NCBI GenBank assembly: GCA_023379025.1
Contig: JAMCTH010000012.1
Span: 1 to 55,501 of the forward strand
Reading direction: 5' to 3'
Source: Patescibacteria group bacterium
GTDB lineage: Bacteria > Patescibacteriota > Microgenomatia > UBA10105 > UBA927
Length of the DNA stretch: 55,501 bases
This document shows, piece after piece, positions 4,887 to 50,236 of this stretch. Positions within the stretch are counted from its first letter, which is position 1. Each line of letters starts with the position of its first letter. The notes below the pieces were generated by a model that searched no databases, was not told where the DNA came from, and saw only the letters and a list, made by a program, of their open reading frames with translations. The position numbers were made by a program, and so were the translations under genes.

Positions 4887-4897
4887 AAAGGAGGCAT

Positions 4898-6259
4898 ATG
4901 GCATACGACCTCTCCATTTTTAAAGATTACGATATCCGCGGCACCTACCCCGACAAGATAAACGGGAATGTCGCCGAGGCAATCGCCTATGCAATAGTCC
5001 GTAAATTTCAGCCGCGGTCGGTCGGGATTTGCCGGGATATGCGGCTCTCCGGTACGGAACTGCGTGACGCATTTGTCCGTGTGTTTACGGCGCTTGGGAT
5101 AGAGGTCTTCGACGCCGGACTGGTCGGCACGGAAATGCAGTATTACATCGCCGGCACGAGGCCCTATGACCTGGTCCTCATGATATCCGCCTCGCACAAT
5201 CCGCCGGAATATAACGGCATCAAACTCGTGAAAAAGGGTCCTATCGCGGTTACCAGCGACAGCGGGCTTTATGAGGTACGGGACCTTCTTGGCGCCGGAC
5301 CGCTCCCGGATGCCCCGGACAAAGGATCCGTTACCATGATCGACGTCATCGGGGAATGGAAAAAGAAAATCTACTCGCTGGTCGACGTTTCCTCGCTCAA
5401 GCCGCTTTCCGTCGTCGTTGATGCCGGTAACGGCATGGCCGGTAAGCTTGTCCCTGCGGCATTTGAGGGGCTTCCCATGAACGTGACGCCGCTTTTTTTT
5501 GCGTTGGACGGCCGCTTTCCCAATCACGTGCCCAATCCGCTGATTGACAGCAATAACAAGGTGCTCGTCAAAACCATCACGGAAACGCACGCGGATATCG
5601 GCCTTACCTTCGACGGCGACGCGGACCGGATATTTCTGGTAGACGACCGGGGACGGATCGTATCGGGTACGATTACGACCGCCCTTCTTGCCCAGCATTT
5701 TTTGAAAAATCACCCCGGGGAACTTATCCTCTATAACGCGATATGCGGCAGGATTGTTCCGGAAACGGTCAAGCGTATGGGAGGCAAATCCAAACGCGTC
5801 CGCGTGGGGCATAGCTATATCAAAACATACATGCGGGAGACCGGGGCGATATTTGCGGGGGAACACTCGGGCCACTACTACTACCGCGACTTTTTTGCGG
5901 CAGAAAGCGGCGTCCTGACGGCGCTTCTTGTCCTGTCGTTCCTCGGCCGCGAAGGCAGGAAACTCTCGGAGATGGTTGACGCGCTTGACGTCTATCCGGC
6001 AAGCGGGGAGATCAACTTCGTGGTTGCCGACCGCGACGGGACGCAAAAGGCCATGCGCGACGCTTTCCCCGACGCATCAGCGGTTGACGAGCTTGACGGA
6101 GTCAGCATCTGGTACAAGGACTATTGGTTTAATGTGAGGGCGTCCAAAACCGAGCCGCTTCTCCGGCTGAACGTGGAAGCGGATACCGCGGAGCTTCTCA
6201 AAGAAAAGACCGATATGCTTATCCAAAAAATAGAATCCCTTGGCGGGAAAAGAAAGTGA
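4898..6259 (+). CDS. phosphomannomutase/phosphoglucomutase
   Basis: FKDYDIRG, SASHNP, FDGDADR, GEHSGH motifs. Confidence 0.95.
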   Translation: MAYDLSIFKDYDIRGTYPDKINGNVAEAIAYAIVRKFQPRSVGICRDMRLSGTELRDAFVRVFTALGIEVFDAGLVGTEMQYYIAGTRPYDLVLMISASHNPPEYNGIKLVKKGPIAVTSDSGLYEVRDLLGAGPLPDAPDKGSVTMIDVIGEWKKKIYSLVDVSSLKPLSVVVDAGNGMAGKLVPAAFEGLPMNVTPLFFALDGRFPNHVPNPLIDSNNKVLVKTITETHADIGLTFDGDADRIFLVDDRGRIVSGTITTALLAQHFLKNHPGELILYNAICGRIVPETVKRMGGKSKRVRVGHSYIKTYMRETGAIFAGEHSGHYYYRDFFAAESGVLTALLVLSFLGREGRKLSEMVDALDVYPASGEINFVVADRDGTQKAMRDAFPDASAVDELDGVSIWYKDYWFNVRASKTEPLLRLNVEADTAELLKEKTDMLIQKIESLGGKRK

Positions 6260-6265
6260 GGGAGT

Positions 6266-7339
6266 ATGACAAATCTCGATGATCTTAGTGCCATACAAAC
6301 GCTTGACGCCGAAAACGTCCGGGGGTCGATAGAGCTGGTCGGGAAACAGTGCCGTCAGGCATGGGACGATGTCCGGGGTATCGCCTTTCCCGCGGCTTAC
6401 CGGACCCCTTCTTCAATCGTATTCGCCGGTATGGGCGGGTCTGCGCTTGGTGCATACATGATCCGTTCTTTGTTTTTTGACACGATTCCGGTTCCGTTTG
6501 AGATCGTCAACGATTATCATCTGCCGCCGTACGTAAACGAAAAGACGCTCGTTATCGTCTGCAGCTACTCCGGTACCACGGAAGAAGCGATCTCCTGCGC
6601 CCGGGAAGCCATCGGGAAGCACGCCATGCTGACCGGTATTACCGAAGGGAAAACGCTCGGGGAGCTTTTCCGATCATCGGATACTCCGGCATATCTATTC
6701 ACCCCGACGTACAATCCTTCCAACCAGCCGCGGCTTGGGACCGGGTACACCGCTTACAGCCAGTTTGCCATCCTTACCGCGTTGGGTCTTGTTTCGGTTA
6801 CGGACCGGGACACGGATGACGTCGTCCGGGTAGCGGAAGAAGGGAATAAGGCATACGGCCTTTCCGTTCCTACTTCCGGCAATCCCGCCAAAGCCCTGGC
6901 ACACACCTGGTTTGAAAAAATCCCCATTATCGTATCTGCGGAATTTTTGAAGCAGGTCGGCCGCATCATCAGGAACCAGTTCCATGAATGCGCCAAGTCG
7001 TTTGCCGCATACCACGATATTCCGGAGCTTAACCACCACCTTATGGAAGCGCTCACCTATCCGGAGGGAAACAAATCGCTTCTCAGTTTCCTGTTTCTCG
7101 ACTCGCCTCTCTACTCGCCCCGCATTAAAAAGCGCGTCGGGATCACCAAAGATGTCGTGAAGCGGCAGGGTATGCACGTTGAGGAATTCGTCCCCACATC
7201 ATCGACCAAAATCACTCAGGCATTCGAGTGCGTGCAGTTTGGGGCATACGTCAACTATTATATGTCCATGCTCTACGGCATCAACCCGAGCAAAATTCCC
7301 TGGGTCGATTATTTCAAAACGGAGCTTGCAAAAGAATAA
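6266..7339 (+). CDS. bifunctional phosphoglucose/phosphomannose isomerase (SIS family)
   Basis: GMGGS, SYSGTTEE, QPR, PELNHH motifs. Confidence 0.88.
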   Translation: MTNLDDLSAIQTLDAENVRGSIELVGKQCRQAWDDVRGIAFPAAYRTPSSIVFAGMGGSALGAYMIRSLFFDTIPVPFEIVNDYHLPPYVNEKTLVIVCSYSGTTEEAISCAREAIGKHAMLTGITEGKTLGELFRSSDTPAYLFTPTYNPSNQPRLGTGYTAYSQFAILTALGLVSVTDRDTDDVVRVAEEGNKAYGLSVPTSGNPAKALAHTWFEKIPIIVSAEFLKQVGRIIRNQFHECAKSFAAYHDIPELNHHLMEALTYPEGNKSLLSFLFLDSPLYSPRIKKRVGITKDVVKRQGMHVEEFVPTSSTKITQAFECVQFGAYVNYYMSMLYGINPSKIPWVDYFKTELAKE

Positions 7340-36984: not shown

Positions 36985-38526
36985 GTGATGGAAGAAGAAT
37001 TTGATTTTACAAAATTGAAGTATGTCCTCTATGCTCGGAAATCCACAGATGATGTAGGAAGGCAACCAAAATCCATAGGTGATCAAATTGCCGAATGCAA
37101 GGAACTCGCAGCGAGAGAAGGACTTCATATTGTCGGTGATCCCCTCACAGAAACAAAATCTGCAAAAAGACCCAATCAACGACCCGTGTTCACACAAATG
37201 ATTAAAGATCTCAAAAAGGGCATCTATGACGGAATACTCTCATGGAACCCGGATCGGTTGGCTAGGAATATGAGAGAGGGCGGAGAAATCATTGACATGA
37301 TTGACGAAGGACAGATTAAGGATTTAAAGTTCGTCACCCATCATTTTTCAAAAGATGCAAACGGGAAAATGCTATTGGGGTTAGCGTTTGTTTTATCAAA
37401 GCAATACTCGGATAACCTTTCCCAAAACGTCAAACGTGGGGTCACTAGGAGACTGTCAGAGGGTAAATCGCCGACGCCGAAACATGGATACATAAAGGAC
37501 TCCGAAAGACTTTACCGACCAGATGGTAAAAACTTTGAACTAATATGTAATATTTGGGAATTAAGAGCAGAAGGAACTTCGTATGAAAACCTTGTAAAGT
37601 ATCTAAACGACAACAACTATGCGAGAACTACTAAACGCGGCAGAAGAATTGCAATTACTGGACAAATGCTTACTGATCTCTTTAAGGATCCATTTTATTA
37701 CGGTATTTTAGTTCAAAAGGATCAAAAAGTAGACTTACGATCTCTTTACAACTTTCAACCTGCAATTACGGAAGAGCTATATAATAAAGTGCAACAGCTC
37801 TCATACAGGAAAATATATTCCTCTAAAAAGCCTACTGCTGCATTTTATCCGCTAAAAAAGATGATAATATGTTCGTTTTGTGGCAGTAATATGTACGTCG
37901 GAGCTTCAACGGGAAGGTATCAGCGATACTTGAATGCAAGGTGCGGAAATGCATCTTGCCGTCGCAAGGACAAATCTATACGAATGAAGATTGTATTTGA
38001 CTTTATATATAAATTATTTGCTAAAGGATTAAACTTTACTGAGAAAGAATACGACAAATACTATGATAGCCTGTCAATGCTAACTGATAAAAAAAGACAA
38101 GAACTTACCATTGAGCTCCACAGCAAGCAGGCTATACTTAAAAAAGTAGATGCAGACCTGAATGAAAGAGCTTTAGGAATCGTAAAATTGAAGAAGGGCT
38201 CAGAGACGTGGAATATCAACGAACGGAAAATAAATAAACTAAGCAACCAAAAAATAGGTCTGCAAACTCAAATAGACAAGTTAAAGGAAAAAAATAGCAA
38301 TCCGGAAGCGGAGCAGCTAAATCTTGAGGATTTCTTGAACCTTTCAAAAAATGCTTCTGTAATAGTCCAATCGGCGAATGCGGTCGTAAAAGATCTAATT
38401 TGCCGAAAAATCTTTTTGAACCTTACTGTTGATAACGAGAAAGTATTGTCCTATCAAGCTAAAGAACCATTCGCTACCCTTCTAAAACAGAGGGGGCTGT
38501 TATCTTGTGCGGACGAGAGGACTTGA
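36985..38526 (+). CDS. large serine recombinase/integrase
   Basis: YARKS catalytic Ser, DRLARN, recombinase domain, CSFCG...C Zn ribbon, coiled coil. Confidence 0.92.
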   Translation: MMEEEFDFTKLKYVLYARKSTDDVGRQPKSIGDQIAECKELAAREGLHIVGDPLTETKSAKRPNQRPVFTQMIKDLKKGIYDGILSWNPDRLARNMREGGEIIDMIDEGQIKDLKFVTHHFSKDANGKMLLGLAFVLSKQYSDNLSQNVKRGVTRRLSEGKSPTPKHGYIKDSERLYRPDGKNFELICNIWELRAEGTSYENLVKYLNDNNYARTTKRGRRIAITGQMLTDLFKDPFYYGILVQKDQKVDLRSLYNFQPAITEELYNKVQQLSYRKIYSSKKPTAAFYPLKKMIICSFCGSNMYVGASTGRYQRYLNARCGNASCRRKDKSIRMKIVFDFIYKLFAKGLNFTEKEYDKYYDSLSMLTDKKRQELTIELHSKQAILKKVDADLNERALGIVKLKKGSETWNINERKINKLSNQKIGLQTQIDKLKEKNSNPEAEQLNLEDFLNLSKNASVIVQSANAVVKDLICRKIFLNLTVDNEKVLSYQAKEPFATLLKQRGLLSCADERT

Positions 38527-38589
38527 ACCTCCATGCCTTGCGGCACAGCCTCCTCAAGACTGCGCGTATACCAATTCCGCCACGTCCGC
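38508..38589 (-). tRNA. tRNA-Leu(GAG)
   Basis: cloverleaf GCGGACG/CGTCCGC, anticodon arm CAGTC-TT-GAG-GA-GGCTG, long variable arm. Confidence 0.95.
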
Positions 38590-38633
38590 ATGTAAAATTT
38601 GACAATAAAAATTTCTTCTTAGAAATTATTCTG

Positions 38634-38706
38634 TGCCGAGACTAGGAATTGCACCCAGATAACGTGTTTTTCAGACACGCGCCTTGACTACCTCGGCCAT
38701 CTCGGC
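38634..38706 (-). tRNA. tRNA-Phe(GAA)
   Basis: GCCGAGA/TCTCGGC acceptor, CGTGT-CT-GAA-AA-ACACG; T-loop TGCAATT. Confidence 0.92.
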
Positions 38707-38764
38707 AGACAGATATTACTCAAATAGCAATACAAACATCCTATTATAACGTATATTTCTTCTG

Positions 38765-38838
38765 TGGGCACGAAGAGACTCGGACTCCTGACCTCTTCTG
38801 TGTAAAAGAAGCGCTCTAACCGGCTGAGCTACGTGCCC
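38765..38838 (-). tRNA. tRNA-Val(TAC)
   Basis: GGGCACG/CGTGCCC, CTTCT-TT-TAC-AC-AGAAG; T-loop TCCGAGT. Confidence 0.92.
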
Positions 38839-38927
38839 GTCATCCGTATTTTAAATGAAATCCACGGGTAACTCAATGAATTATGTTGTCAAGCATACGT
38901 AAATTGGTTACAATACAAACTGTTCCT

Positions 38928-39002
38928 GCGGCGGTAGTTCACCGGTAGAATGTCTCCTTGCCAAGGAGAATGTAGCGGGTTCAATTCCCGTCCGCCGCTC
39001 CA
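38928..39002 (+). tRNA. tRNA-Gly(GCC)
   Basis: GCGGCGG/CCGCCGC, TCTCC-TT-GCC-AA-GGAGA, encoded CCA. Confidence 0.95.
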
Positions 39003-39056
39003 GACGGGATAGCCTGGTTATCAAAGTGGTGAATGAATTGATATAACGGGCTAATC
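39003..39056 (+). repeat. 54-nt palindromic trailer, copy 1
   Basis: 53/54 identical to the reverse complement of 47519-47572. Confidence 0.9.
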
Positions 39057-39250
39057 TTCCAATTTGACCTAAGTAACATATTACAAACGGATTTAGCCTC
39101 AATTGAGATTTCAGGAAGACGGGAATTGAATCCAAGGGAAAAATAAACTTTTTAACCGGGCTTGAAATTGTTCTTTTGTTGAAATATCCACTAAATAAGT
39201 ATATTTCATATGGTATTGACAAGTTTGATCATCTTTGATAACATATAGTC

Positions 39251-39523
39251 ATGTTAAACACATCTTTAGAGCCCACAAGAGCATATACTCCCGATCAGGT
39301 TGCTCAAATGCTGCAACTCTCTAAAAACACAGTTTATGAACTCATTAACCGGGGAGAAATTGTGGCCAAAAAAATCGGCAAAGTGTATCGGATACCGGCA
39401 GCTTCCATCGCCTTTATCTTTACCGGCCTTGATTATGACCTCTATCAGATGGATCAAGAAGACCGAAAATATCTTCCTCAGATCGAGAAGACGCTGAACG
39501 AGGTACGTTCTGAAATAAAATAG
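39251..39523 (+). CDS. excisionase-like (HTH_17) DNA-binding protein, putative antitoxin
   Basis: YTPDQVAQMLQLSKNTVYELI.RGEI.A.KIG..YRI; TTGACA-17-TAACAT promoter, leaderless. Confidence 0.85.
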   Translation: MLNTSLEPTRAYTPDQVAQMLQLSKNTVYELINRGEIVAKKIGKVYRIPAASIAFIFTGLDYDLYQMDQEDRKYLPQIEKTLNEVRSEIK

Positions 39524-39527
39524 ACGT

Positions 39528-39950
39528 ATGAACGTGTATGTTGATTCTGATGTTGTAATTTCATCCTTATTTTCCGGAACAGGAGCAGCATATTACCTTC
39601 TCAACAAGAGTTCGATAACTCCCGTAATTTCCTCTCTTTCAGTTCAAGAACTGAAGAATGTAATCTCACGCCTGAATATAGATCAGAACAGGCTCCTGGA
39701 GCTGACTAAAAAACATCTGAAACTCGTGGAGTTAAAACAGCGTATCGCGTCTTTGAAAACGAAATACTCTCCGTACGTGTTCGATGTTAATGACGGACAT
39801 ATTGTGGCAGGAGCCCAAAAGGAGAAAGTTAGTTTTCTTCTGACATATAATTTAAAACATTATAAAATTGCGAAAATTAAAGACGATCTCAATATTCAGG
39901 TCATTACTCCCGCACTTTTTCTTCAATATCTCCGAAGTTTGGAAAAATAA
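39528..39950 (+). CDS. PIN-domain protein, putative toxin
   Basis: VYVDSDV, E, D.ND.HI, LLTYN.KH. Confidence 0.85.
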   Translation: MNVYVDSDVVISSLFSGTGAAYYLLNKSSITPVISSLSVQELKNVISRLNIDQNRLLELTKKHLKLVELKQRIASLKTKYSPYVFDVNDGHIVAGAQKEKVSFLLTYNLKHYKIAKIKDDLNIQVITPALFLQYLRSLEK

Positions 39951-40017
39951 CGTCGCAAGACTCACTTTTATACTCATCGCCTTGATTAAGCCTCCATCAA
40001 GCTGTTAAAATGAGATA

Positions 40018-40160
40018 GGAGTTCGGGCAGGAGCGGTCTAAATATTTGTCCGCCTCCCGCTCGTAAACAGAGAACCGACAGGTGTTGATCATAGCCCTGG
40101 CAGGCAGCACAGGAGAAGGTACGTAGTATACGATGTGTAGCCGTAAGGCTATGATTTTTT
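40018..40160 (+). ncRNA. candidate structured RNA upstream of tRNA-Gln
   Basis: TTGATT-18-TAAAAT promoter, hairpin 40024-40063, ATCATAGCC/GGCTATGAT stem then T-run. Confidence 0.4.
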
Positions 40161-40163
40161 GTA

Positions 40164-40234
40164 TGCGGGATCGTCCAATGGTAGGACACAGGACTTTGGA
40201 TCCTGGTATCTAGGTTCGAATCCTAGTCCCGCAG
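40164..40234 (+). tRNA. tRNA-Gln(TTG)
   Basis: TGCGGGA/TCCCGCA, CAGGA-CT-TTG-GA-TCCTG. Confidence 0.95.
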
Positions 40235-40282
40235 CATATCTAACCATACAAATGAATGGTAATATTTATCTAAAATAATTTT

Positions 40283-40573
40283 ATGTCAAGAGAACAGTTA
40301 GCCAAAAAAATATACTGGACAAAAATAATTTGGATAGTAAGTATTATAAATCCGTTGATGACATTGCCTCAGTTTCTGCAGGTATGGCAAACTCATGAAA
40401 CGGCAGGCCTCTCGTTGGCTTTTCTTTTTATTCTTTTATTCGTTCAAACGGGGTTTTCGACACACGGATTCTTTACTAGAGATAAATTTATTATGGGAAG
40501 TAATGGATTAGCTGCCCTTATGACACTTCTTACAATACTTTCAACTTTATATTTTCGCAGTACTATTTCCTAA
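40283..40573 (+). CDS. SemiSWEET/PQ-loop family small transporter
   Basis: three TM helices, LPQ...W.T..T.GLS motif. Confidence 0.75.
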   Translation: MSREQLAKKIYWTKIIWIVSIINPLMTLPQFLQVWQTHETAGLSLAFLFILLFVQTGFSTHGFFTRDKFIMGSNGLAALMTLLTILSTLYFRSTIS

Positions 40574-40660
40574 ACTAACTTGTATCTAGTCCACCTGGTC
40601 TCCATTCCAACCTCTGAATATCGAAAAGTCATAAATATTTTGTTTCATGTAATCGGGCTT

Positions 40661-42085
40661 CTATAGCGGCTGGTAGCGGCTTCTCTCGCTCAGGAGTTTC
40701 TCGTAGTCTGTCCCGAGGAGGATGTCAACCGTATACTGCTGCCCCGAAATGTTCTCTCCATAGGTGACGATGCCGACGCCGAACATCGACTGCAGCATAT
40801 CGATATCCGCTTTTCCGATGGATCTGTCGTAGACCGTGATCGACGTCTTCGTGGTCGATGTCGCCGGTGCATTTCCCGTGGTTACCGAGGTATATCCCGC
40901 ATCCGTAAGTTTTCCGAGTGCTTCCTGAGCCAGGCCCTGTACGGGCGTCCCGTTTCGTACACGGATGAGGGGTGCTTTACCGGGGAGGGCCCCGAAGCTA
41001 TCAGCAATCCAGGTATGGACAGGGGTCCATGCATCGGTTCCGTTTTCGGGGATAAGCACCGCCTGTCCGTCCGAAGCCGTCCGGTCGGCCAGGAAATTGC
41101 CGTCCGTTAAAGCCATGGTGTGTACGGCATAGGTATTTAGCTCCGCGGACTTCTGTATGAGGGTCTGAAGATCCCCGGCCGTCATATCGGTACTGAAGTC
41201 GCGGGAAAGAGAATCAACAAAAGGGATGATTTTCGGTATAAACCCGATCGAAAAAATCTTCTCGCGTACCGCAAGGATGAGGTTTCTCTGCCGCTTTGCG
41301 CGTCCGAAATCCGTGCCGTCCTGTACTGAATGTCGGGACCGTACATACGCCAGAGCTGTGGCTCCGTCCATATGCTGGAGACCCGCGTCAAAATGCAGGT
41401 GCTCATAGCGGCAGGGGAATACGAGCTCTGCCGCCGTGGTCGCTTCTTCGGCCACAAGTGACGGCAATTCCTCCTGGGTATGGCCGCAGAGGTCATCTTC
41501 CTTGCCGGCGACGGGGTATTCGTAATCATCAAATGTTTTTTCTACGTTGATGTCCACGCCTCCCAGGGTATTGATGGTCTGTTCGAATCCGGAAAAATCA
41601 AGCGCCACGTAGTACTGGATCGGTTCGCCTATGACCTGGCCCACCGCCCAGCGCGCCAGTCTTCCGGCTGCTCCGGTCCCGGTATATTCTTTCGGTTTGT
41701 CGGGATAATCGGCGTCATCAAGACCTATGGCATAAGCCGCGTTCAGTTTCCAGTATTTGCCGCCGTTTCCGTTACTCGGCAGTTTTATCCATATGTCCCT
41801 CGGAACGGACAGAAGGGACACGACTTTGAGGTTGGAATCGATATGGGCCACAAGTATCGAATCGGTCAGATACGCGCCGTCGTGATTTCCGCCGCCATAA
41901 CCGAGGAGCAGGATATTCAGGGGCTTTTTGTTCATGAGGTAGTCGGCAACACGTGTCAGACTGGGTTCGCTGACACCCGATACCGGTATGAAAATGCGCT
42001 GCGTTACGTTTCTGAGCCAGAAATACGGCACACCGATACAGAGGACAAAAAGAAGAACTAGCAGAAATATTTTCTTCATGTGCAT
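40661..42085 (-). CDS. LCP (LytR-CpsA-Psr) family protein with LytR C-terminal domain
   Basis: LTDSI, SVPRD, YVRSRH, DFGRAKRQ, VRNGT..GLA. Confidence 0.93.
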   Translation of the reverse strand: MHMKKIFLLVLLFVLCIGVPYFWLRNVTQRIFIPVSGVSEPSLTRVADYLMNKKPLNILLLGYGGGNHDGAYLTDSILVAHIDSNLKVVSLLSVPRDIWIKLPSNGNGGKYWKLNAAYAIGLDDADYPDKPKEYTGTGAAGRLARWAVGQVIGEPIQYYVALDFSGFEQTINTLGGVDINVEKTFDDYEYPVAGKEDDLCGHTQEELPSLVAEEATTAAELVFPCRYEHLHFDAGLQHMDGATALAYVRSRHSVQDGTDFGRAKRQRNLILAVREKIFSIGFIPKIIPFVDSLSRDFSTDMTAGDLQTLIQKSAELNTYAVHTMALTDGNFLADRTASDGQAVLIPENGTDAWTPVHTWIADSFGALPGKAPLIRVRNGTPVQGLAQEALGKLTDAGYTSVTTGNAPATSTTKTSITVYDRSIGKADIDMLQSMFGVGIVTYGENISGQQYTVDILLGTDYEKLLSERSRYQPL

Positions 42086-42130
42086 CTCACGAGTGTATCA
42101 AAAATCGGGAACGTTTAGTATAATGCAGCT

Positions 42131-42292
42131 ATGATTGTTCAGGCTCTTATTATACTCTTTCTCGGTATCGTTGTCGGACTTATCGCCCTGCTTACCGGTG
42201 TGGTCGGCCGGCTCTGGCTTCTCCTGTTTAAAAAAGAACTGTCGCTCCCGTTCGGCGGGAAAAACGATGCTCCGTCGGAAACCGACAGATAA
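42131..42292 (+). CDS. 53-aa single-pass membrane protein, below the ORF-track cut-off
   Basis: MIVQALIILFLGIVVGLIALLTGVVGRLWLLLFKKE...; TATAAT 6 nt upstream; ends 6 nt before tgt. Confidence 0.6.
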   Translation: MIVQALIILFLGIVVGLIALLTGVVGRLWLLLFKKELSLPFGGKNDAPSETDR

Positions 42293-42298
42293 CCCGCG

Positions 42299-43513
42299 AT
42301 GCAACCGACGTTTGAACTCTCGTCTACTTCCCGGGAATGCAGTGCGCGGACAGGAGTTCTCCGCACGGCACACGGCAGTATAGAAACACCCTGTTTCGTC
42401 CCGGTCGGGACACAGGCCAGCCTTAAATCGCTCTCGTCAGAAGAAATCAGGGCTTCCGGGACCCAGCTTCTGTTTGTCAACACCTACCACCTCCATCTTC
42501 GGCCCGGTGAAGAGACCATTAAGGCGCTCGGGGGCGTCCACACCTTCATGCACCACGACGGTCCGCTCATCAGTGACAGCGGGGGATTTCAGGCATTTTC
42601 GCTGGGACTTGGTCTCGAGCACGGAGTCGGGAAAATCGCCGATATCTTTCCGGATGAAGAGAAACGGACCATAAATTTTGCCAAAACCGCAAAATCACTG
42701 GTGCATGTCGACCCCGACGGCGTCACGTTCCGCTCACATGTGGACGGCAGGAAGCTCAGGCTTACCCCCGAGTCATCCATCCGCATACAGGAAGCGCTCG
42801 GAACGGATATCGCGCTTGCCCTGGACGAGTGCACCTCGCCGCTCTCTCCGAAATCCTACGTACGGGAAGCGCTCCTTCGTACGACACGCTGGGCCGGGCG
42901 TTCGCTCGAGGCCCACAAAAGTAAACGTCAGCTCCTCTTCGGCATCATCCAGGGCGGGCATTACCGGGACCTCCGGGAGAAAGCGTGCCGTACGATCGGC
43001 TCACTCCCGTTTGACGGATTTGCCGTGGGCGGCGATTTCGGGAGAAGTAAGCGCGAAATGGTCCGGATAACGGCGCTGGTTATGAACAGTATTCCCCGGG
43101 ATAAACCGCGTCATATTCTGGGTATAGGCGAGATAGACGACATCTTCCGTATTGTCGAAAACGGCGCGGACAGTTTCGACTGTGTCATGCCGTCGCGGCT
43201 CGGCAGGATGGGACATATACTGCACAAATCAAAAATCAAAGATCAAAGATCAACAATATCGTTTACATACGATATCACGAAAAAAGTCTTCAGTAAGGAT
43301 AGTAAACCATTGGATGAAGCGTGTTTGTGCTGGGTCTGTCAAACGTATAGCCGCGCATACATGCATCACCTGTTTCGGACCCGAGAACTTCTGGGATACA
43401 GGCTCGCAACGTATCATAATGTCTCGTTTCTCAATACGCTGGTCGGAGATATCCGCCGTGCCATCAGAAACAATTCGTTCATAAAACTCCGAAATTCCTG
43501 GCTTGACAGCTGA
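42299..43513 (+). CDS. tgt: tRNA-guanine transglycosylase
   Basis: NTYHL, DSGGFQ, GIIQGG, DSFDCV, C.C..C...H Zn site. Confidence 0.95.
   Translation: MQPTFELSSTSRECSARTGVLRTAHGSIETPCFVPVGTQASLKSLSSEEIRASGTQLLFVNTYHLHLRPGEETIKALGGVHTFMHHDGPLISDSGGFQAFSLGLGLEHGVGKIADIFPDEEKRTINFAKTAKSLVHVDPDGVTFRSHVDGRKLRLTPESSIRIQEALGTDIALALDECTSPLSPKSYVREALLRTTRWAGRSLEAHKSKRQLLFGIIQGGHYRDLREKACRTIGSLPFDGFAVGGDFGRSKREMVRITALVMNSIPRDKPRHILGIGEIDDIFRIVENGADSFDCVMPSRLGRMGHILHKSKIKDQRSTISFTYDITKKVFSKDSKPLDEACLCWVCQTYSRAYMHHLFRTRELLGYRLATYHNVSFLNTLVGDIRRAIRNNSFIKLRNSWLDS
43224..43258 (+). repeat. five degenerate 7-nt tandem repeats inside tgt
   Basis: ACAAATC AAAAATC AAAGATC AAAGATC AACAATA. Confidence 0.75.
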
Positions 43514-43578
43514 TGGCGGAGTGAGTAGGGTAGTACTGTTTATCCCGTTTGAAATCCCCTGCCCGCACAAAACCATCA

Positions 43579-44178
43579 ATGCAACTTAGTGAAGCATTTA
43601 GGGGTTATTCTATTCAAGAAGGATCGGTATCCGATGGAATACCGTGGGATGAATTAGATAGACTGGTATCTACTGGATTCACGCAGGGAGAAGTCATAAC
43701 CAAATCCGGGCACACACTTTCTTTTGACGTAGCTCCATACTCTGTAAGACTGACGGATGCCGAAAGCAGTGACTATCTGATGGAAGGGGACATTGAACCA
43801 GAAAGCGGTGTTGCTCAATTTCATTTGTATACACGTTCACCGGCAGATTCTGTACACGATATCCCGAAGTATCACCCTGATTTTCATGCAGAATCATTTG
43901 TTGGAATAGTACTGCTGTATTTTGAATGTCAGGGATATCCTGTCTCTCGTATACATTCCCGGTGGGACGCCTGGGGATCCGGACATTTCGGAACACAATC
44001 AAACTATGCTGCCTTCCGTCGTGGTCTCATAAATACCAGTGATATTGTATCTATCGCACGTTCTACACCATCGGGTATGCTTTATAATCGTTTTGGATTT
44101 ACCGTCAACTCACGGGACCAAATATCGATAAGTTCTGATTGGAGCACTATTGAGGTATTGTTTGAAAAAGAGATGTAA
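43579..44178 (+). CDS. hypothetical protein
   Basis: ~200-aa ORF of lower GC converging on tRNA-Leu(CAG). Confidence 0.65.
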   Translation: MQLSEAFRGYSIQEGSVSDGIPWDELDRLVSTGFTQGEVITKSGHTLSFDVAPYSVRLTDAESSDYLMEGDIEPESGVAQFHLYTRSPADSVHDIPKYHPDFHAESFVGIVLLYFECQGYPVSRIHSRWDAWGSGHFGTQSNYAAFRRGLINTSDIVSIARSTPSGMLYNRFGFTVNSRDQISISSDWSTIEVLFEKEM

Positions 44179-44250
44179 TTTTATCAATAACCAAATTCAG
44201 CAACTCGTATTGTTCTGTATCTTCACGTAATATTTTATACACACGTTCTG

Positions 44251-44334
44251 TGCCGCAGAGAGGACTCGAACCTCCACGCCGTTACCGGCACACGCTCCTG
44301 AAGCGTGCCTGTATACCAATTTCAGCACTGCGGC
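44251..44334 (-). tRNA. tRNA-Leu(CAG)
   Basis: GCCGCAG/CTGCGGC, CACGC-TT-CAG-GA-GCGTG, variable arm. Confidence 0.95.
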
Positions 44335-44390
44335 GATACATCCGTATTGTAACAGCCTTTTTCATGGCTTTCCATCGCCTAATATACCTA

Positions 44391-44912
44391 ATGAAGTTTG
44401 GATTTCAATACTACCATTTAGTATCATGGGACTATGGCGCGAAGAAAAAATGGACAGAAGAAGATTTACGTCGTGCCACAGCACATGCAAGAAGCATACG
44501 ACAAATTCTTCATGAATTACATCTGGTTGAAGCCGGGGGGAACTACGCACAAGTGCAAAAATATCTTCAATATTATAAAATTGATACGGGTCACCTGAAA
44601 GGAAGAGGCTGGAATAAGGGTTTGAAGGGAATTGGAATGCCGCACATCCCATTACAATCAATACTTGTTACAAAAAGCACATTTCAAAGTTATAAGCTTA
44701 AAAAACGCCTGTTTCATGCCGGAATTAAACAACAAAAGTGCGAAATATGCGGCTGGTCAAAAAAATCATCTGACGGGAGAATTCCTCTTGAATTGGATCA
44801 TATAAATGGTGATCGGACGGATAATACCTTAATAAATCTTCGGGTACTTTGTCCAAACTGCCATAGTTTACAACCAACTCATAGAGGAAAAAACAGACAG
44901 AAACGACTGTGA
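44391..44912 (+). CDS. free-standing HNH endonuclease (start uncertain)
   Basis: CEICG...LELDHINGD.TDN...NLRVLCPNCH. Confidence 0.85.
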   Translation: MKFGFQYYHLVSWDYGAKKKWTEEDLRRATAHARSIRQILHELHLVEAGGNYAQVQKYLQYYKIDTGHLKGRGWNKGLKGIGMPHIPLQSILVTKSTFQSYKLKKRLFHAGIKQQKCEICGWSKKSSDGRIPLELDHINGDRTDNTLINLRVLCPNCHSLQPTHRGKNRQKRL

Positions 44913-44919
44913 TACTGCA

Positions 44920-45005
44920 GGGCGAGTGCTGGAACTGGCAGACAGGCAACACTTAAAATGTTGTGGTGAGAAATCACCGTGTGGGTTCGACTCCCACCCC
45001 GCCCA
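44920..45005 (+). tRNA. tRNA-Leu(TAA)
   Basis: CAACA-CT-TAA-AA-TGTTG, variable arm, GTGGG-TTCGACT-CCCAC. Confidence 0.92.
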
Positions 45006-45091
45006 CTGAACAATTTCTAAAAGAAAGTTTTTGTCTAAACACACGAGTACAATTGCATCGGGTTTATCCGAAAATTTTCTGCAAAGAAGCC

Positions 45092-45438
45092 GGTTCCGCG
45101 AGGTAACTCAATTGGCAGACTACGCACTTTACACTTCGAATTTGGTCGGAGAGTAGTTCAGTTGGTAGAACGCACGGTTTGTACCGAAATCTGGTCGGGG
45201 TGTGGCGCAATTGGCTAGCGCGCATCGTTTGGGACGATGAGGCTGAGAGTTCGAGTCTCTCCACCCCGACCAGTTTCCAGTATGAAGGTTTACTCGGGAT
45301 GTCGCGCTTTGAATATCCCGGGACCGTGAGGTCAGAGGCTCGAGTCCTCCATCCCCGGGTAAATTCCGAGTATAATGGAAGTTTGTCCGGAAGTATCGAA
45401 AGGTGAGGTTCCGGGTTTGTTTACTCGGCCTCCTGAAC
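45092..45438 (+). other. nested degenerate split-tRNA shells around tRNA-Pro
   Basis: tRNA-like 5' halves at 45097-45130 and 45147-45180, 3' halves at 45320-45357 and ~45397-45436, joined by complementary linkers. Confidence 0.6.
45196..45272 (+). tRNA. tRNA-Pro(TGG)
   Basis: CGGGGTG/CACCCCG, CATCG-TT-TGG-GA-CGATG, GAGAG-TTCGAGT-CTCTC, encoded CCA. Confidence 0.95.
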
Positions 45439-45442
45439 ATAT

Positions 45443-45901
45443 ATGAAAAAGCAAATTCCTGTCTGGTTGATTGCCGCAGTCTGCATCGTAGTGCTTCTTG
45501 GGGGCTATACCATTTATCACTATAAAACGCATCCGCTGGGAGCCGCTGCCGTCATACGGAGTCATCGCATTGCACTACTCCTGGCGGTCACGCCGTCGGA
45601 AAAAGACCGGGGGCTCGGGCACCGTGACAGTCTGCCTCCCGACACCGGGATGCTGTTTCCGTTTGACCGAAAAGCGCGGTACCAATTCTGGATGAAAGGC
45701 ATGCGGTTTCCTTTGGATTTTGTCTGGATCGCGGATAAAAAAGTAGCGGATATCACCCAAAACGTCCCGCCTCCGGCCGGCAGCGGGCCGCTTCCCGTCT
45801 ATCAGCCGTCGGTTCCCGTCGATCAGGTGCTCGAGCTCAACGCGGGTTCTGTAGCAAGACTCCATATCGCCGTCGGCGATACAGTCATCTATACATTTTA
45901 A
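45443..45901 (+). CDS. DUF192 family protein
   Basis: RGL..R..L....GMLF.F, FWMK.M.FPLD..WI, VLELNAG. Confidence 0.92.
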   Translation: MKKQIPVWLIAAVCIVVLLGGYTIYHYKTHPLGAAAVIRSHRIALLLAVTPSEKDRGLGHRDSLPPDTGMLFPFDRKARYQFWMKGMRFPLDFVWIADKKVADITQNVPPPAGSGPLPVYQPSVPVDQVLELNAGSVARLHIAVGDTVIYTF

Positions 45902-45998
45902 TCGAGGCTGTAGTCAACGCTGCGCTCTCCGCGGGAATTGTACCGGCAAGCTTCCCCGTAGCAGGGTGTTATGTGGTAGTCAAGCGGAATATCGTCTG

Positions 45999-46070
45999 CG
46001 CCCTCAGGTAGAATCGAACTACCATCTGCTCCTTAGAAGGGAGATGCTCTATCCGTTGAGCTATGAGGGC
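45999..46070 (-). tRNA. tRNA-Arg(TCT)
   Basis: GCCCTCA/TGAGGGC, CT-TCT-AA anticodon loop, GGTAG-TTCGATT-CTACC. Confidence 0.92.
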
Positions 46071-46325
46071 CCAATGCATATTTTACCCCCACTCTACGAA
46101 AAGCGCTACGGCAGGCGGGAGGGGCATGCTCTATCCGATGAAACTATGGGTGACTGACAGAACGAAACTACATGAGAGGAGGACGGTTGTGACACACCGA
46201 GGCGTCTGAGAATATTCTGGGCAGGAGACGCGGATTTTTTTGATCTCCTGTTCGACGAGATACTAATAGATTTTAGCAAGTTGATGGAAGCTTATTAAAC
46301 ACTTGGGGAAAAATTATTTCAAAAA

Positions 46326-47366
46326 TTAATTTTGATACCGAAGTATCATTGTGCAAAATTCATTAGCCACGGTAAAAGCTGCTGGTTGGTCATAGTTTGA
46401 TAAAACAACTGTAGTGTAATCTAGCAAAGGATACATATCTAAACGCGTATTTGCTCCGGCATATGCGCCTGCATGACCGTAACGTTGGAATTTCCCAGCC
46501 GCTTCCAGAATTTGAAAACCATAACCGTAGTACAGTGATTCATTATTCTTCGTTCCTATTTTGACCCTAGGGGAAAGCATTAATTTTGTTGTCTCCGGGG
46601 TGAACAGCTTGTTTTGCAGTAACGCTTGTGAAAATTTATATAAATCCCGGCAAGTTGAGTACCCTCCACCAGCCGAATTGCCTTTTTTTGGTAGGTCAAG
46701 AGTATTGTTTCGGCGAGGACCATCAATTAATTCGTGCGAAAAAGGCTGGCGATACGTATAGCCGTTGGCGATTCTCGGATTATTCTCATGAGGGTTGAAA
46801 CAACCGCTATCGGACATATTGGCAATATCGAATATATGTTTTTTTACGTAATCATAATACGATATCCCGGATATGGCTTCGACGATAGCACCCAGGATTA
46901 TATAGCCACAATTACTGTACTGGTTTTTTTCGCCTGGGTTAAAAAGGAGAGGTTTCTTTTTAAACAAATCAACATATTCATTTATCGAATCGATTTCCAG
47001 TCTTTTATCAATAAATTGTTTATCCTCCATATAACTGGGTAATCCATCAGTGTGAGTTAACAAATGATGGATAGTCATTTTGTTTGCTACTTCCTTGGGA
47101 TAATCGGATAGATATTTAGCAATAAGATCATTAAAATCCAATTTTCCTTGCTCCCGTAGCTGTCCAATCGCCACTGCGGTAAACATTTTATCCATCGACC
47201 CGATATTAAAAATGGTATCTATAGTATTCGGAATATACTTTTCTTTATCCGCGTATCCGCAGGAATGTTGGAGAAGTATTTTTCTATTTTTTACGATTAA
47301 TACATTCCCTGAAAATAGGTCTTTTTCCGTTTGATTGATAAGAAATGTCTTAAATTCATCTATCAT
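46326..47366 (-). CDS. serine hydrolase, class C beta-lactamase/PBP-like (AT-rich cargo)
   Basis: GSMDK (SxxK), YSN, GHAG motifs. Confidence 0.9.
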   Translation of the reverse strand: MIDEFKTFLINQTEKDLFSGNVLIVKNRKILLQHSCGYADKEKYIPNTIDTIFNIGSMDKMFTAVAIGQLREQGKLDFNDLIAKYLSDYPKEVANKMTIHHLLTHTDGLPSYMEDKQFIDKRLEIDSINEYVDLFKKKPLLFNPGEKNQYSNCGYIILGAIVEAISGISYYDYVKKHIFDIANMSDSGCFNPHENNPRIANGYTYRQPFSHELIDGPRRNNTLDLPKKGNSAGGGYSTCRDLYKFSQALLQNKLFTPETTKLMLSPRVKIGTKNNESLYYGYGFQILEAAGKFQRYGHAGAYAGANTRLDMYPLLDYTTVVLSNYDQPAAFTVANEFCTMILRYQN

Positions 47367-47518
47367 TAATTTCGAGTATATCAAACAAACTATTCGGTGC
47401 TGTTAGGCGTACATGATTTACTTATTACAAAAGCAATCAATTTGTTCAATTCTCATCTCAGTAAAACACAAAGTTAAGCCTAACAGTTTTATCTGATTCT
47501 ATTGAACTAATTTATGAT

Positions 47519-47572
47519 GATTAGCCCGTTATATCAATTCATTCACCACTTTAATAACCAGGCTATCCCGTC
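47519..47572 (-). repeat. 54-nt palindromic trailer, copy 2
   Basis: directly follows the CCA of tRNA-Gly(TCC); 53/54 identical to 39003-39056. Confidence 0.9.
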
Positions 47573-47647
47573 TGGAGCGGCGGACCGGATTTGAACCGGC
47601 GACCTTCTCCTTGGAAGGGAGACATTCTACCGCTGAACTACCGCCGC
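47573..47647 (-). tRNA. tRNA-Gly(TCC)
   Basis: GCGGCGG/CCGCCGC, TCTCC-CT-TCC-AA-GGAGA, encoded CCA. Confidence 0.95.
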
Positions 47648-47674
47648 AACAGCCTTCATTATACAATGAGTCTC

Positions 47675-49393
47675 ATGCATATGAAACGGGGGTTCTTTTT
47701 AGTTATCCTCGCGGCTCTCGTTTTGCCGTCGGAGGTCTTTGCGGTGTATGACCCGACAAGCGTTCCGAACAACCGGTTCGGTATCCACATCGCCGATACC
47801 AATAACATCCCCGAAGTTCCCGCGCTCGTTAATTCAACTGGCGGAGACTGGGGTTACGTAACACTCGTCATTCCTGATTCGGACAGGAATACGGAAAAAT
47901 GGCAAAAAATCTTCAATATTCTACGACGTTCACACCTTATTCCGATTGTTCGTCTTGCAACCCACAGCGACGGCCCGGTATGGATCAAGCCATCCGATGC
48001 GACTCTTCTTGACTGGGTCAGCTTTCTCGGAAGTCTCAACTGGCCGACCGCAAACCGCTACGTCGTGGTCTATAACGAGCCGAACCACGCGAACGAATGG
48101 GGAGGGCAGATCGATCCGGAGGGCTATGCGGACATTCTCAGTATTATTTCCAAGGAACTTAAAGCTTCTTCCCCGGACTATTTTATCCTGCCCGCGGGAC
48201 TTGATGCTTCCGCACCGTCGGGCGGGGAATCCATGGACGAAGCTGCGTTTCTCCGGCGTATGGTTACTGCCATTCCGGATATATTCTCGAGTATCGACGG
48301 CTGGACGTCCCACGCATACCCCAATCCGGAATTTTCCGGTTCTCCGTATGCCGAGGGCCGTGGTACGCTGACGACCTACCGCTGGGAGGAGCAATATCTT
48401 CATTCGCTCGGTCTTACGCGGCAGCTTCCTGTTTTTATCACGGAAACGGGCTGGGTTCACGACGCCGGGATACAGGAAAACCTGCGCTACCTCACTTCAG
48501 ACCAGATAGGCCGCTACCTTCTGTATGCCGCGGGAGCAGTCTGGAATGACCCGTCCGTCGTCGCCGTGACGCCGTTTGTGTTCAGTTACCAGGGCGAGCC
48601 GTTCGATCATTTTTCTTTTAAGGAAGTGGGGGGAGATGCATTCTATCCCCAGTATTACGCGTACCGGAGTATCCCGAAGGTGAGCGGAGAGCCGCTGCAG
48701 CACGAACGTTTTGACCTCCGCGAACCGATTCTCCCCCCGGTCCTCATCGCGGATTCCGTCTACACCGTGACGAGAACGATCGCCAATACCGGCCAGAGTA
48801 TTCTCGACGAAAAAGACGGATATTCATTCTCCCTCACCGACCCTGACGGCTCGTTTCAGGCCACCTCAGAAGCCTTGCCGTATCTTGAACCAGAGGAGAG
48901 CGGTACGCTCACGCTTTCGGTTAAAACGCCGAAAACTTCCGGTGTCTACCGTGTCGGTGCGTCGCTCACCCACCACGGATACCATATTCCGGTTACGGAG
49001 GAGACGGTCCGTATCGTACCGCCACCATCGCTCACCGTGAGCGCCCGGCTCGGGTGGAGAAAAACCAGTACTGCCCGCGGCGTCACCGTGCTTCTTTATA
49101 AAGATACGAAACTCCTCCAGAAATTCACCGGCCTCACGCTCCGGGATGGCAGGGTTACCGTGTCCGGTATCACCGGTATCATTCCCCGCGAACCGTACCG
49201 TGTCGTTATTCTTGTGCCGTACTATCTGCCGAGACAGGCAATCATCGCGTTGCAACCAAGCAGTACGGTCGTCACCATGCGCCGCATGCTGCCGCTTGAT
49301 TTCGACCGTGACGGCGCATTTACGCTCCGGGACATCATGGCGCTTCTCCGAAAAAGCCCGAAGGATATCCTTCCGTACATTTTTTCTCCCTAA
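47675..49393 (+). CDS. secreted clan GH-A glycoside hydrolase-like protein with C-terminal beta/dockerin-like domains
   Basis: signal peptide, YNEPN acid/base, SHAYP, ITETGW nucleophile, DFDRDG....RD EF-hand-like end. Confidence 0.75.
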   Translation: MHMKRGFFLVILAALVLPSEVFAVYDPTSVPNNRFGIHIADTNNIPEVPALVNSTGGDWGYVTLVIPDSDRNTEKWQKIFNILRRSHLIPIVRLATHSDGPVWIKPSDATLLDWVSFLGSLNWPTANRYVVVYNEPNHANEWGGQIDPEGYADILSIISKELKASSPDYFILPAGLDASAPSGGESMDEAAFLRRMVTAIPDIFSSIDGWTSHAYPNPEFSGSPYAEGRGTLTTYRWEEQYLHSLGLTRQLPVFITETGWVHDAGIQENLRYLTSDQIGRYLLYAAGAVWNDPSVVAVTPFVFSYQGEPFDHFSFKEVGGDAFYPQYYAYRSIPKVSGEPLQHERFDLREPILPPVLIADSVYTVTRTIANTGQSILDEKDGYSFSLTDPDGSFQATSEALPYLEPEESGTLTLSVKTPKTSGVYRVGASLTHHGYHIPVTEETVRIVPPPSLTVSARLGWRKTSTARGVTVLLYKDTKLLQKFTGLTLRDGRVTVSGITGIIPREPYRVVILVPYYLPRQAIIALQPSSTVVTMRRMLPLDFDRDGAFTLRDIMALLRKSPKDILPYIFSP

Positions 49394-49435
49394 GACTTTC
49401 TGTGATTCGCCGGGTACGCTATAATACGCGGTATT

Positions 49436-49512
49436 GGTGACGTGTGCCGAACGGCTTAGGCGCTGCCCTGTGGAGGCAGTTTTAGCGGGTCCGACTCCCG
49501 TACGTCACCCCA
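49436..49512 (+). tRNA. tRNA-His(GTG)
   Basis: encoded G-1:C73, CTGCC-CT-GTG-GA-GGCAG, CCA; T-loop TCCGACT. Confidence 0.9.
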
Positions 49513-49557
49513 AGGCTTGTCAATAGCATAGATAACTTGTTAGAACAGTCTAAATTA

Positions 49558-49632
49558 TTGACATAAAAGAGTCACTCGTGTAATATAAAAGTATAAACGC
49601 CTCGTCTTAGCGTAAGCTCGACGAGGTTTTTT
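49558..49632 (+). promoter_or_regulatory. promoter followed by a short terminator-like hairpin upstream of the NYN gene
   Basis: TTGACA-17-TAATAT, then CCTCGTC-TT-AGC-GTAA-GCT-C-GACGAGG + T6. Confidence 0.65.
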
Positions 49633-49649: not shown

Positions 49650-50236
49650 ATGGATACGTACTTATTCATAGATGGAGAAAACTTCTTATACAAAGTTGAG
49701 GATGCGCTCCGAGAATCAGGCATTCCGAAACGTAAAATTGATACAACTCACATCAAGCTTGCCGGACTTATCTCGCAGGCGCTTACCGGATATACAATCG
49801 CAAAGAAAACTTTCTACTCAGCAAAACTCCGATTCTTTGAAGAAACGAAAGAAAAGTCACGAGTGCTTATCAATAAACAGCGAATACTTAAACAAAACCT
49901 AGAAAAACAGGGGTTTGAATTCCTTATCGCCGGCAATGTTCGTCCTCAACAAGTAACGGCAAACGGAAAAACTACATATGTTTTTAAAGAAAAAGGCTTG
50001 ATGTGAGAATCGCCGTCGATCTTATAACAGCCTGTTGCGATAAAAAAATAGATACGGCCATTCTTTGCAGTTCAGATTCCGATCTGCAGCCTGCAATTAC
50101 AGAATTAAAGCGACGCGGAGTAAAAATCGTATATGTAGGCTTTGAATTATCACCGAATAAAGGATTAACATTCACCTGTAACAAGACTATTTTGTTCAGA
50201 AACAGCGAAATTCTCAAATACTGCCCGCCTAAATAA
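49650..50236 (+). pseudogene. NYN (LabA/DUF88) domain RNase split by a 1-nt frameshift near 49997
   Basis: FIDGEN in ORF1, SSDSDL.P in ORF2; expected KEKGVDV is broken (AAA GGC TTGATGTG lacks one base). Confidence 0.8.

Follow-up and report, generated by a model that had tools for sequence, protein, structure and literature searches.

Trailers behind the tRNA-Gly genes

The window analysed here is the 55,501-nt stretch of contig JAMCTH010000012.1 (C12), part of the genome of a Patescibacteria group bacterium (GCA_023379025.1; referred to as G000; 1.11 Mb in 12 contigs, 52% GC). Two tRNA-Gly genes in the window are each directly followed by the same 54-nt trailer, behind which lies a short island with different cargo. 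The two trailers face each other because the tRNA-Gly genes sit on opposite strands. The features of these left ends are as follows.

38928..39002, + strand: tRNA-Gly(GCC); T-arm and acceptor 3' strand form the predicted host (B) arm
38997-38998, + strand: inferred crossover dinucleotide GC in tRNA-Gly(GCC), tRNA positions 71-72
39003..39056, + strand: 54-nt trailer, copy 1; predicted element (P') arm of the left attachment site (attL)
47519..47572, - strand: 54-nt trailer, copy 2, 53/54 identical to copy 1; predicted P' arm
47573..47647, - strand: tRNA-Gly(TCC); predicted B arm, inferred core GC at 47578-47577

The initial annotation of this DNA had reported that the two tRNA genes differ at 8 of 75 positions and that the repeat matches at 66/67 when the last 13 tRNA bases are included, and recomputation returned the same values. 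The inverted repeat that it saw bounding 8.5 kb measures 133 nt at 92% identity, by far the longest among 57 pairs in the window. It had also noticed a 7-nt complement to the T-stem across a 10-nt spacer, which is perfect only in the GCC copy, and had read it as recombinase core-site geometry; the 7-bp dyad is indeed centred on the crossover that we place at tRNA positions 71-72. The bulged hairpin described in the trailer does fold, but it is modest (z -2.7 and -2.0; 2/200 and 8/200 shuffles as good). Against Rfam the trailer matched no family, and the search gave only tRNAs and matches below the gathering score.

Three features go beyond the initial annotation: a third trailer copy, a recombinase frame on the antisense strand, and conserved right ends. 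The third trailer, also 54 nt, lies behind tRNA-Gly(CCC) on contig C5 of G000. It is identical to the window copies at 40/54 positions, including the whole last 19-mer, and is followed by a small open reading frame (ORF) and a PIN gene. A trailer is therefore present behind every one of the three tRNA-Gly genes detected by ARAGORN in G000, and a search for the 19-mer with up to 3 mismatches found no further site in the genome.

For comparison we used 15 loci from relatives of the same family (20 stretches fetched, four short ones dropped, two merged). None of their 20 tRNA-Gly genes carries a trailer. The spacing between Gly(GCC) and Gln is 6-208 nt in 5/6 of these loci, and the window without its island would give 99; between Gly(TCC) and Arg it is 1-227 nt in 7/11, and the window without its island would give 146. 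Judged from these comparisons, the islands are insertions at tRNA-Gly genes.

The trailer encodes part of a large serine recombinase

On the antisense strand the trailer encodes ISPLYQ and about 13 further residues in a frame that runs into the tRNA. It is a near-C-terminal segment of a large serine recombinase (LSR), equivalent to positions 484-510 of the profile of the LSR C-terminus. A pattern of T-loop, 50 nt and motif matched 49/401 class genomes, a tally that counts G000 and the unpublished genome G096, with 0 control hits. A collection scan yielded at least 117 stretches. The informative titles among the matches listed are largely Levy-, Davies-, Roizman-, Woese- and Curtissbacteria, and many other titles among them are uncultured Gammaproteobacteria. 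After duplicate removal, 146 distinct loci formed the sample for LSR counts. At 49 of them the trailer frame belongs to an ORF of 440 aa or longer, taken as an intact LSR; the rest comprise 33 open to the end of the available DNA, 9 long remnants, 48 truncated and 7 too short.

The intact loci reveal what an autonomous relative contains. The one LSR scanned for domains (locus L211; L numbers are our locus handles) shows PF00239 Resolvase, PF07508 Recombinase and the PF13408 zinc ribbon. Each of the 39 intact loci with at least 6.5 kb of DNA has a small ORF upstream; a VirD4-like coupling protein together with a PF13814 (MobC-type) relaxase occurs in 28 of them. A domain scan of 70 selected proteins, rather than of whole elements, found no mating-pore families; L041 was listed end to end without Pfam. 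The small ORF belongs to no Pfam family, and its atlas neighbours are all hypothetical and below 0.9. Its model is all-helical (pLDDT 72, pTM 0.45) and has no PDB match at E <= 0.001. With about 110 aa, a predicted helical fold and no known family, the protein encoded before the LSR is a candidate directionality factor or regulator. Intact elements (for example L081, L105 and L160) also show a conserved operator-like palindrome upstream of this ORF, at a distance of about 1.75-1.95 kb from the trailer.

The target tRNAs of the LSR family cover at least 11 amino acids. On a quick LSR tree the type of target tRNA clusters (21 changes versus 31.8 when shuffled), and near-identical LSRs occur at different isoacceptors. 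The trailers nearest to those of the window belong to two intact LSR loci at tRNA-Gly, L129 and L158 (51/58 and 50/58).

Immediately past the trailer, intact LSR genes (for example L074, L053 and L050) contain a T-loop-like dyad of about 50 bp inside the coding sequence, 83-133 nt from the tRNA T-loop. Seven pairs of this dyad covary, in 67-77 of 77 loci. It has a CCA-like end at tRNA distance, and several truncated loci stop just after it. It is possibly a fossil or auxiliary attachment site, going by its sequence.

In G000 itself the family profile matched the three trailers and two distant LSRs only. Neither a cognate LSR nor a relaxase was found in this genome, which is 95% complete; for the relaxase, the PF13814 control itself matched nowhere. 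The two distant LSRs, one at tRNA-Leu(GAG) in the window and one at tRNA-Trp on contig C4, were considered as helpers and are unlikely ones, being about 24-25% identical to the family. Viral contigs gave 0 hits with the Gly trailer and 1 hit with the coding motif, an LSR integrated at tRNA-Phe without a free attP. This contig (L211, from IMG/VR) carries at 4818-6814 an intact family LSR with its small ORF, adjoining phage-like genes.

The window LSR just mentioned (36985-38526, + strand) belongs to another subfamily (24% identical to the trailer family) and ends inside the antisense tRNA-Leu(GAG). A low-GC region starts at about 33000, to its left, and together they are probably a separate island. 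In the relative G007, tRNA-Leu(GAG) bears a trailer of the ISPLYQ family instead. On contig C5, tRNA-Glu (3031-3105) is followed by a remnant that resembles the tail of the C4 tRNA-Trp LSR. From this resemblance, a second LSR family appears to leave the same kind of trailer.

Right ends, cargo and the left-inner module

Each cargo is followed by a conserved stretch of about 90 nt that terminates in a degenerate tRNA acceptor end and encodes, antisense, the rest of the LSR tail. Together with the trailers, these right ends define three mini-islands of 1062, 1356 and 956 bp from core to core. Their parts are listed below.

39093..39133, + strand: left-inner module, island 1, with a 10-bp motif (39093-39102) and an inverted T-arm-like half-site (39118-39133)
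39251..39950, + strand: island 1 cargo, HTH_17 (39251-39523) and PIN_3 (39528-39950), a toxin-antitoxin-like pair
39963..40062, + strand: right end of island 1, predicted P arm of the right attachment site (attR); core GC 40059-40060
40036-40041, + strand: T-loop-like motif (degenerate) in the island 1 right end
46219..46318, - strand: right end of island 2, predicted P arm of attR; core GC 46222-46221, T-loop-like motif 46245-46240
46326..47384, - strand: island 2 cargo, beta-lactamase-family serine hydrolase (PF00144)
47443..47483, - strand: left-inner module, island 2, with a 10-bp motif (47474-47483) and an inverted T-arm-like half-site (47443-47457)
32477-32576 of contig C5: right end of the third island

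The right-end profile was trained on 21 ends from LSR-less or pseudogene loci. Outside this training set it detected the end of an intact tRNA-Gly element at a distance of 12.4 kb (E 7e-17), and it also matches three more intact elements; the autonomous relative L041 carries the same right end. A reversed-database control gave one hit, at E 0.67. The corresponding pattern matched 47/401 genomes with 3 control hits, and of the 29 loci read (the unpublished one excluded) 19 hold true ends and 10 a coding look-alike. No consistent far end emerged when intact loci were searched for a tRNA fragment in simple direct or inverted form. We also considered the right-end motifs as protein-binding boxes and dropped this idea, the motifs being codons of the LSR tail.

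The initial annotation had named the cargo as an HTH-PIN pair and a serine hydrolase in AT-rich DNA, which agrees with the domains listed above and with a GC content of 0.37-0.39 against 0.52 for the genome. It had also raised a fixed terminator with invariant downstream genes, which does not apply here, as the downstream genes vary. No integrase or transfer gene lies inside the window's islands. In other LSR-less units the cargo can lie in either orientation and consists mainly of toxin-antitoxin, Fic, NYN, PLD and unknown genes; tandem units with full junctions occur at L069, L048, L097, L163, L171, L094 and L239. Homologues of the window's HTH-PIN pair occur in 25 other genomes of the 401. 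In the 24 homologous loci read, none has a right end at E < 0.05 and 1 is near a tRNA; the cargo was therefore captured rather than native to the islands. Four HTH-PIN homologues (L266, L281, L284, L289) are flanked by direct repeats of at least 20 bp unrelated to tRNAs, which suggests another route of spread. For the beta-lactamase-family cargo no metagenome relatives were confirmed.

Between trailer and cargo, LSR-less loci share a non-coding left-inner module. Its 10-bp motif occurs no more than 90 nt from the trailer in 26/55 LSR-less loci versus 141/2908 (4.8%) control windows; 15/49 intact loci also score, via a coding look-alike. Two layouts were recognised. One, present in 18 hand-picked loci among which are the three islands of G000, places the motif at about +35 and an inverted T-arm-like half-site at about +67; the other has the motif at about +52 and a direct half-site (10 loci). 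Intact elements yielded the full module neither at their left end nor in their interior. The module may be functional.

In intact elements such as L052 and L064, a hairpin, the 10-bp motif and a palindrome lie between the coupling-protein and relaxase genes. The 10-mer stands on the other strand upstream of the relaxase in roughly 18/23 intact elements, counted by eye. This arrangement makes the region a plausible origin of transfer (oriT) for PF13814 relaxases. A profile of the whole predicted oriT region had no match in the islands of G000 or in any left end.

Predicted crossover position and the split reading frame

Of the 33 right ends, 21 (8 of 12 outside the training set) repeat tRNA bases 71-74 exactly 17 nt past a GTTCRA-like hexamer, and no other spacing from 10 to 23 scores above 1. 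Some misses, the window's GCC island among them, are due to the script picking another hexamer. In the tRNA the T-loop hexamer lies 12 nt from the same dinucleotide, a shift of 5 bp relative to the right end. Counted in this way, the hexamer ends at position 24 in the right end and at 19 in the tRNA, which holds for the P and B arms only. The core dinucleotide varies with the tRNA (GC, GT, TC, CG, CC).

The tRNA genes themselves narrow the position. In the 46 tRNA-Gly genes listed, pairing of the acceptor stem extends as far as base 72, in a few with one mismatch or wobble. A73 is present in 2/46, both with family trailers, one of them identical to the Leu type; the cut would therefore lie 5' of base 73, and together with the pairing this brackets it to 71-72. 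We infer that the crossover takes place at the dinucleotide of tRNA positions 71-72. The two genes with A73 in place of U73 are tRNA-Gly(CCC) genes at L104 and L141; the base was apparently supplied by an element of other tRNA specificity, and charging could be impaired.

When right and left ends were joined in silico at the core, the LSR frame stayed open for at least 19 further codons in 22/23 elements (median 28), against only 2-5/23 when the join was shifted by 1-2 nt. The test is informative on the frame rather than on the exact base. The joined-tail peptides are visibly conserved, including those of all three islands of G000. A tail-peptide motif was found in 17/23 versus 0, with a pattern built after seeing the peptides and hence not independent. 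Third-position conservation is unusable here, as the search patterns fixed the third-position bases of the ISPLYQ motif. The right end continues the LSR frame in the predicted circle; the attachment site would therefore lie inside the LSR gene, and insertion would split its tail.

These results bear on whether the trailer could be a tRNA 3' processing signal, a terminator hairpin or a tyrosine-recombinase site. The weak hairpin would fit the first two, and two tyrosine-recombinase genes of G000 would fit the third. However, the trailer has no U-tract and no Rfam match, is absent from all 20 tRNA-Gly genes of the family relatives, and stands in frame with LSR genes. At the core, the two ends of each of the three islands have only about 2-6 bp in common, not a long duplicated tRNA end, and the two tyrosine recombinases are unlinked, on other contigs. 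We regard such roles as highly improbable. The tyrosine recombinase that the initial annotation had proposed to look for thus gives way to a large serine recombinase.

Near-identity and orientation of the two repeats

Islands 1 and 2 are 98% identical in the trailer, 51% in the next 79 nt (40/79 ungapped) and 57% in their right ends, and the right ends of the TCC and CCC islands are 78% identical. A crossover at the core cannot give such a mosaic; homologous exchange that stops at the most conserved motif of the family could. The 53/54 identity of the trailers is most likely the product of a recent exchange of this kind, judging from the identity profile. It might have come about by gene conversion between the two attL sites; alternatively, one element lineage could have inserted at both tRNAs and then collapsed between tandem trailers.

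The initial annotation had also suggested that the 8.5-kb segment between the repeats is invertible, with a flip that spares both tRNAs. A 67-bp near-perfect inverted repeat could flip by homologous recombination, the GC core is palindromic, and local inversions are many in the tRNA clusters of the family. On the other hand, both repeats are attL-type left ends of separate islands, each paired with a right end of its own at a distance of about 1 kb, and the third trailer lies on another contig without a partner. The cognate recombinase for an inversion was not found in G000. Leu-Pro-DUF192, the right part of the segment, is oriented relative to the right flank as in the window in 11/12 informative family relatives. 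The Arg-Gly(TCC) pair has the window's orientation in 6 relatives and the opposite one in 4, and the left part of the cluster varies too. These counts point to ordinary shuffling of tRNA clusters as the reason for the facing repeats. Among L290-L309 we see many small inversions in the tRNA cluster, with breakpoints adjoining tRNA genes.

The available read data consist of contigs only, from three runs of one study, two of which are possibly the source. No strand-change joint linking the two repeats appears in these contigs, which break at the repeat and so do not settle the orientation. One opposite-strand joint (38501-39021, with a 33-nt side, in one contig) is probably another organism's Leu trailer. 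Taken together, the programmed inversion of the segment is unsupported and very unlikely. Depth is lower to the right of tRNA-Gly(TCC) (47612-49600) in all three runs (13 vs 24; ~3 vs 14; ~0-1.5 vs 3-8); strain variation, GC bias or a local misjoin could each account for it. The gene order right of tRNA-Gly(TCC) is as in relatives, which argues against a gross misjoin and answers the concern about misassembly raised at the outset.

Origin and mobility of the mini-islands

Based on these findings, the trailer is very likely the P' arm of mini-islands without an LSR that resemble cis-mobilizable elements (CIMEs), likely helper-dependent derivatives of serine-recombinase mobilizable elements. By sequence, the autonomous relatives combine the LSR, the small ORF, the VirD4-like coupling protein and the PF13814 relaxase, and the attachment site would lie inside the LSR 3' end. 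We propose that the LSR binds the T-loop motif GTTCRA and the acceptor 3' strand of the tRNA as attB, cuts at positions 71-72 and inserts the circle, leaving the tRNA intact. Insertion would split the LSR tail into about 20 codons behind the tRNA (the trailer) and about 25-35 codons at the far end (the right end). Loss of the interior would then leave trailer, cargo and right end, and repeated insertion would build tandem arrays. Such mini-islands would need a helper to move. The crossover chemistry, the circles, the helper dependence, any present-day mobility and the cause of the near-identity are deduced from these patterns. The earlier proposal of a tRNA-Gly cassette site served in trans was essentially right, but the targets extend to at least 11 kinds of tRNA, the trailer is one attachment arm as well as an LSR tail, and the cargo has its own right end.

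Several observations weigh against this explanation. With no cognate LSR or relaxase found in G000, the islands may be inert relics. In the contigs of the three runs we saw no excision, circle or empty-site joints at the attachment sites. The P' arm shows no clear T-loop-like motif at the attP distance (17 nt); a weak TCAAA is conserved on this arm at 21-22 nt, and Phe-Asp/Glu codons can explain it. The right-end hexamer of the GCC island is degenerate (2 mismatches), and base 73 of the TCC island is mismatched. Right ends were detected in 20/39 truncated loci with at least 2 kb and in 4/49 intact loci, many of the latter with 7 kb or less available. The HTH-PIN module is without island ends in 24/24 loci, giving no sign that this exact cassette moves. 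Finally, among 7 loci found by their right end with tRNA-Gly in reach, 3 have a full trailer, 2 a partial one and 2 none, so the sharp 54-nt boundary is partly a matter of ascertainment.

Some of these points suit the idea of passive ends, left over from former LSR elements and in decay, with trapped cargo and nothing selected or mobile. The helper was not found in the genome, the right-end motifs are degenerate in two of the three islands, trailer loss is variable in the unbiased sample found by right ends, and nine long pseudogene remnants show ordinary decay. Against it, LSR-less loci share the non-coding left-inner module at fixed offsets, which was not found in intact elements, and tandem LSR-less units with complete junctions imply insertion as units. 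We hold passive decay to be possible but doubtful; for the three copies of G000 it is compatible with the explanation that we prefer, mini-islands derived from LSR elements.

A stronger proposal is that the LSR-less islands, instead of being products of decay, form a self-standing lineage of parasitic cassettes of about 1 kb, for which LSR/MobC elements that target tRNAs would provide excision, transfer and re-insertion in trans. The recombinase tail would then be kept as two coding halves serving as attachment arms, and the left module, with its inverted T-arm half-site and a 10-bp motif shared with the predicted helper oriT, would be purpose-built. We consider this rather unlikely. If true, it would mean integron-like gene exchange in Patescibacteria with the near-universal tRNA T-loop as a recombinase box, and retargeting among tRNAs by change of a 2-bp core.

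Comparison with known systems

The comparisons with published systems draw on parts of each cited source. The ssrA islands of Dehalococcoides (McMurdie et al., 2011, PMC3146451) are the closest published system. There, DsiB lies on the reverse strand and overlaps attL, islands occur in tandem, and 15 ssrA islands without an integration module were proposed as CIMEs; the authors surmised that the circular form alone may contain a complete DsiB. In Dehalococcoides the islands target tmRNA, where the cut is in the T-loop and the direct repeat has 20 bp, whereas here tRNAs of at least 11 amino acids would be cut at 71-72, with about 2-6 shared bases. The Dehalococcoides module is of the dsiA/parB/mom type, with six-gene dsi, compared with the small ORF, VirD4-like protein and PF13814 relaxase of our family. 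In addition, units without an integrase here measure mostly 0.5-1.5 kb and possess a left-inner module of their own, and the conserved circle-form tail is visible in sequence. The sequences thereby lend support to the idea left open for DsiB, that an integrase whose gene overlaps its attachment site has a conserved tail restored only in circular form. A tail that exists only on the circle is a possible built-in directionality switch. An attP inside the integrase gene is known from phage Mx8.

Like CIMEs (PMC5704250), the islands lack integrase and transfer genes, keep attL and attR and accrete in tandem, including at tRNA 3' ends. All three islands have both attL and attR, and related autonomous elements share their ends and site. 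In the text of PMC5704250 consulted, tRNA-targeting elements use tyrosine integrases, and serine-recombinase integrative mobilizable elements (IMEs) mostly disrupt genes. Our islands differ in having a serine recombinase, undisrupted tRNA ends and attachment arms that are coding remnants; their mobilisation in cis is putative. The streptococcal Class_IME_8 (serine integrase, Rel_PF13814/MobC and VirD4; Coluzzi et al., 2017, PMC5357655) has the same three modules as the autonomous relatives. It comprises two Firmicutes elements, and almost all serine integrases in that study insert within genes.

The attachment geometry is close to the LI/A118 model (Rutherford et al., 2013, PMC3783163), in which a zinc-ribbon-domain motif ends at 24 in attP and 19 in attB and the crossover is a dinucleotide. 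These positions are those of the hexamer ends in our right ends and tRNAs, with the same 5-bp shift. In contrast to LI/A118, only the left arms (B, P) have a clear motif here; B' is arbitrary host DNA, and P' is constrained by coding. The iOriT elements (bioRxiv 10.64898/2026.01.13.699239) carry an oriT without a relaxase; here a 10-bp motif is shared with the predicted oriT, and the whole-region profile is without a match. The design of the islands is not unprecedented.

Integrons gather tandem one- or two-gene cassettes, rich in toxin-antitoxin genes, at one site. The islands have no IntI and no attC hairpin, their geometry is of the double-stranded serine type, and their cargo lies in either orientation.

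A listing-level search of the literature, supplements outside, found no description of this family in Patescibacteria. Neither tRNA nor Patescibacteria is mentioned in the main text of Durrant et al. (PMC10083194); members might be listed in its supplements. In Patescibacteria, whose genomes are tiny, few mobile elements have been described. What is now defined is a tRNA-targeting serine-recombinase family, with minimal cargo islands of exact ends and inferred crossover, in 49/401 sampled genomes by one stringent pattern. An enzyme family that reads the T-loop across at least 11 tRNA types would provide a dataset on serine-integrase specificity and a source of integration tools.

Other features near tRNA genes

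Past the right end of island 2, the host DNA at 46070-46220 holds a decayed copy of the 5' part of tRNA-Arg, and in L291 a stretch similar to it stands directly behind an unoccupied tRNA-Gly(TCC). An HNH endonuclease gene (44250-44912) lies between the divergent tRNA-Leu(CAG) and tRNA-Leu(TAA), and a homologue (55%) precedes tRNA-Leu(TAA) in L303. Behind tRNA-His, an AT-rich patch contains an NYN-domain gene (49650-50236), apparently as two overlapping ORFs. Contig C4 of G000 carries at 55874-56466 five divergent tRNA genes (Asn, Trp, Glu, one of undetermined type, Pro) whose types are duplicated elsewhere in the genome; this block is possibly phage-derived.

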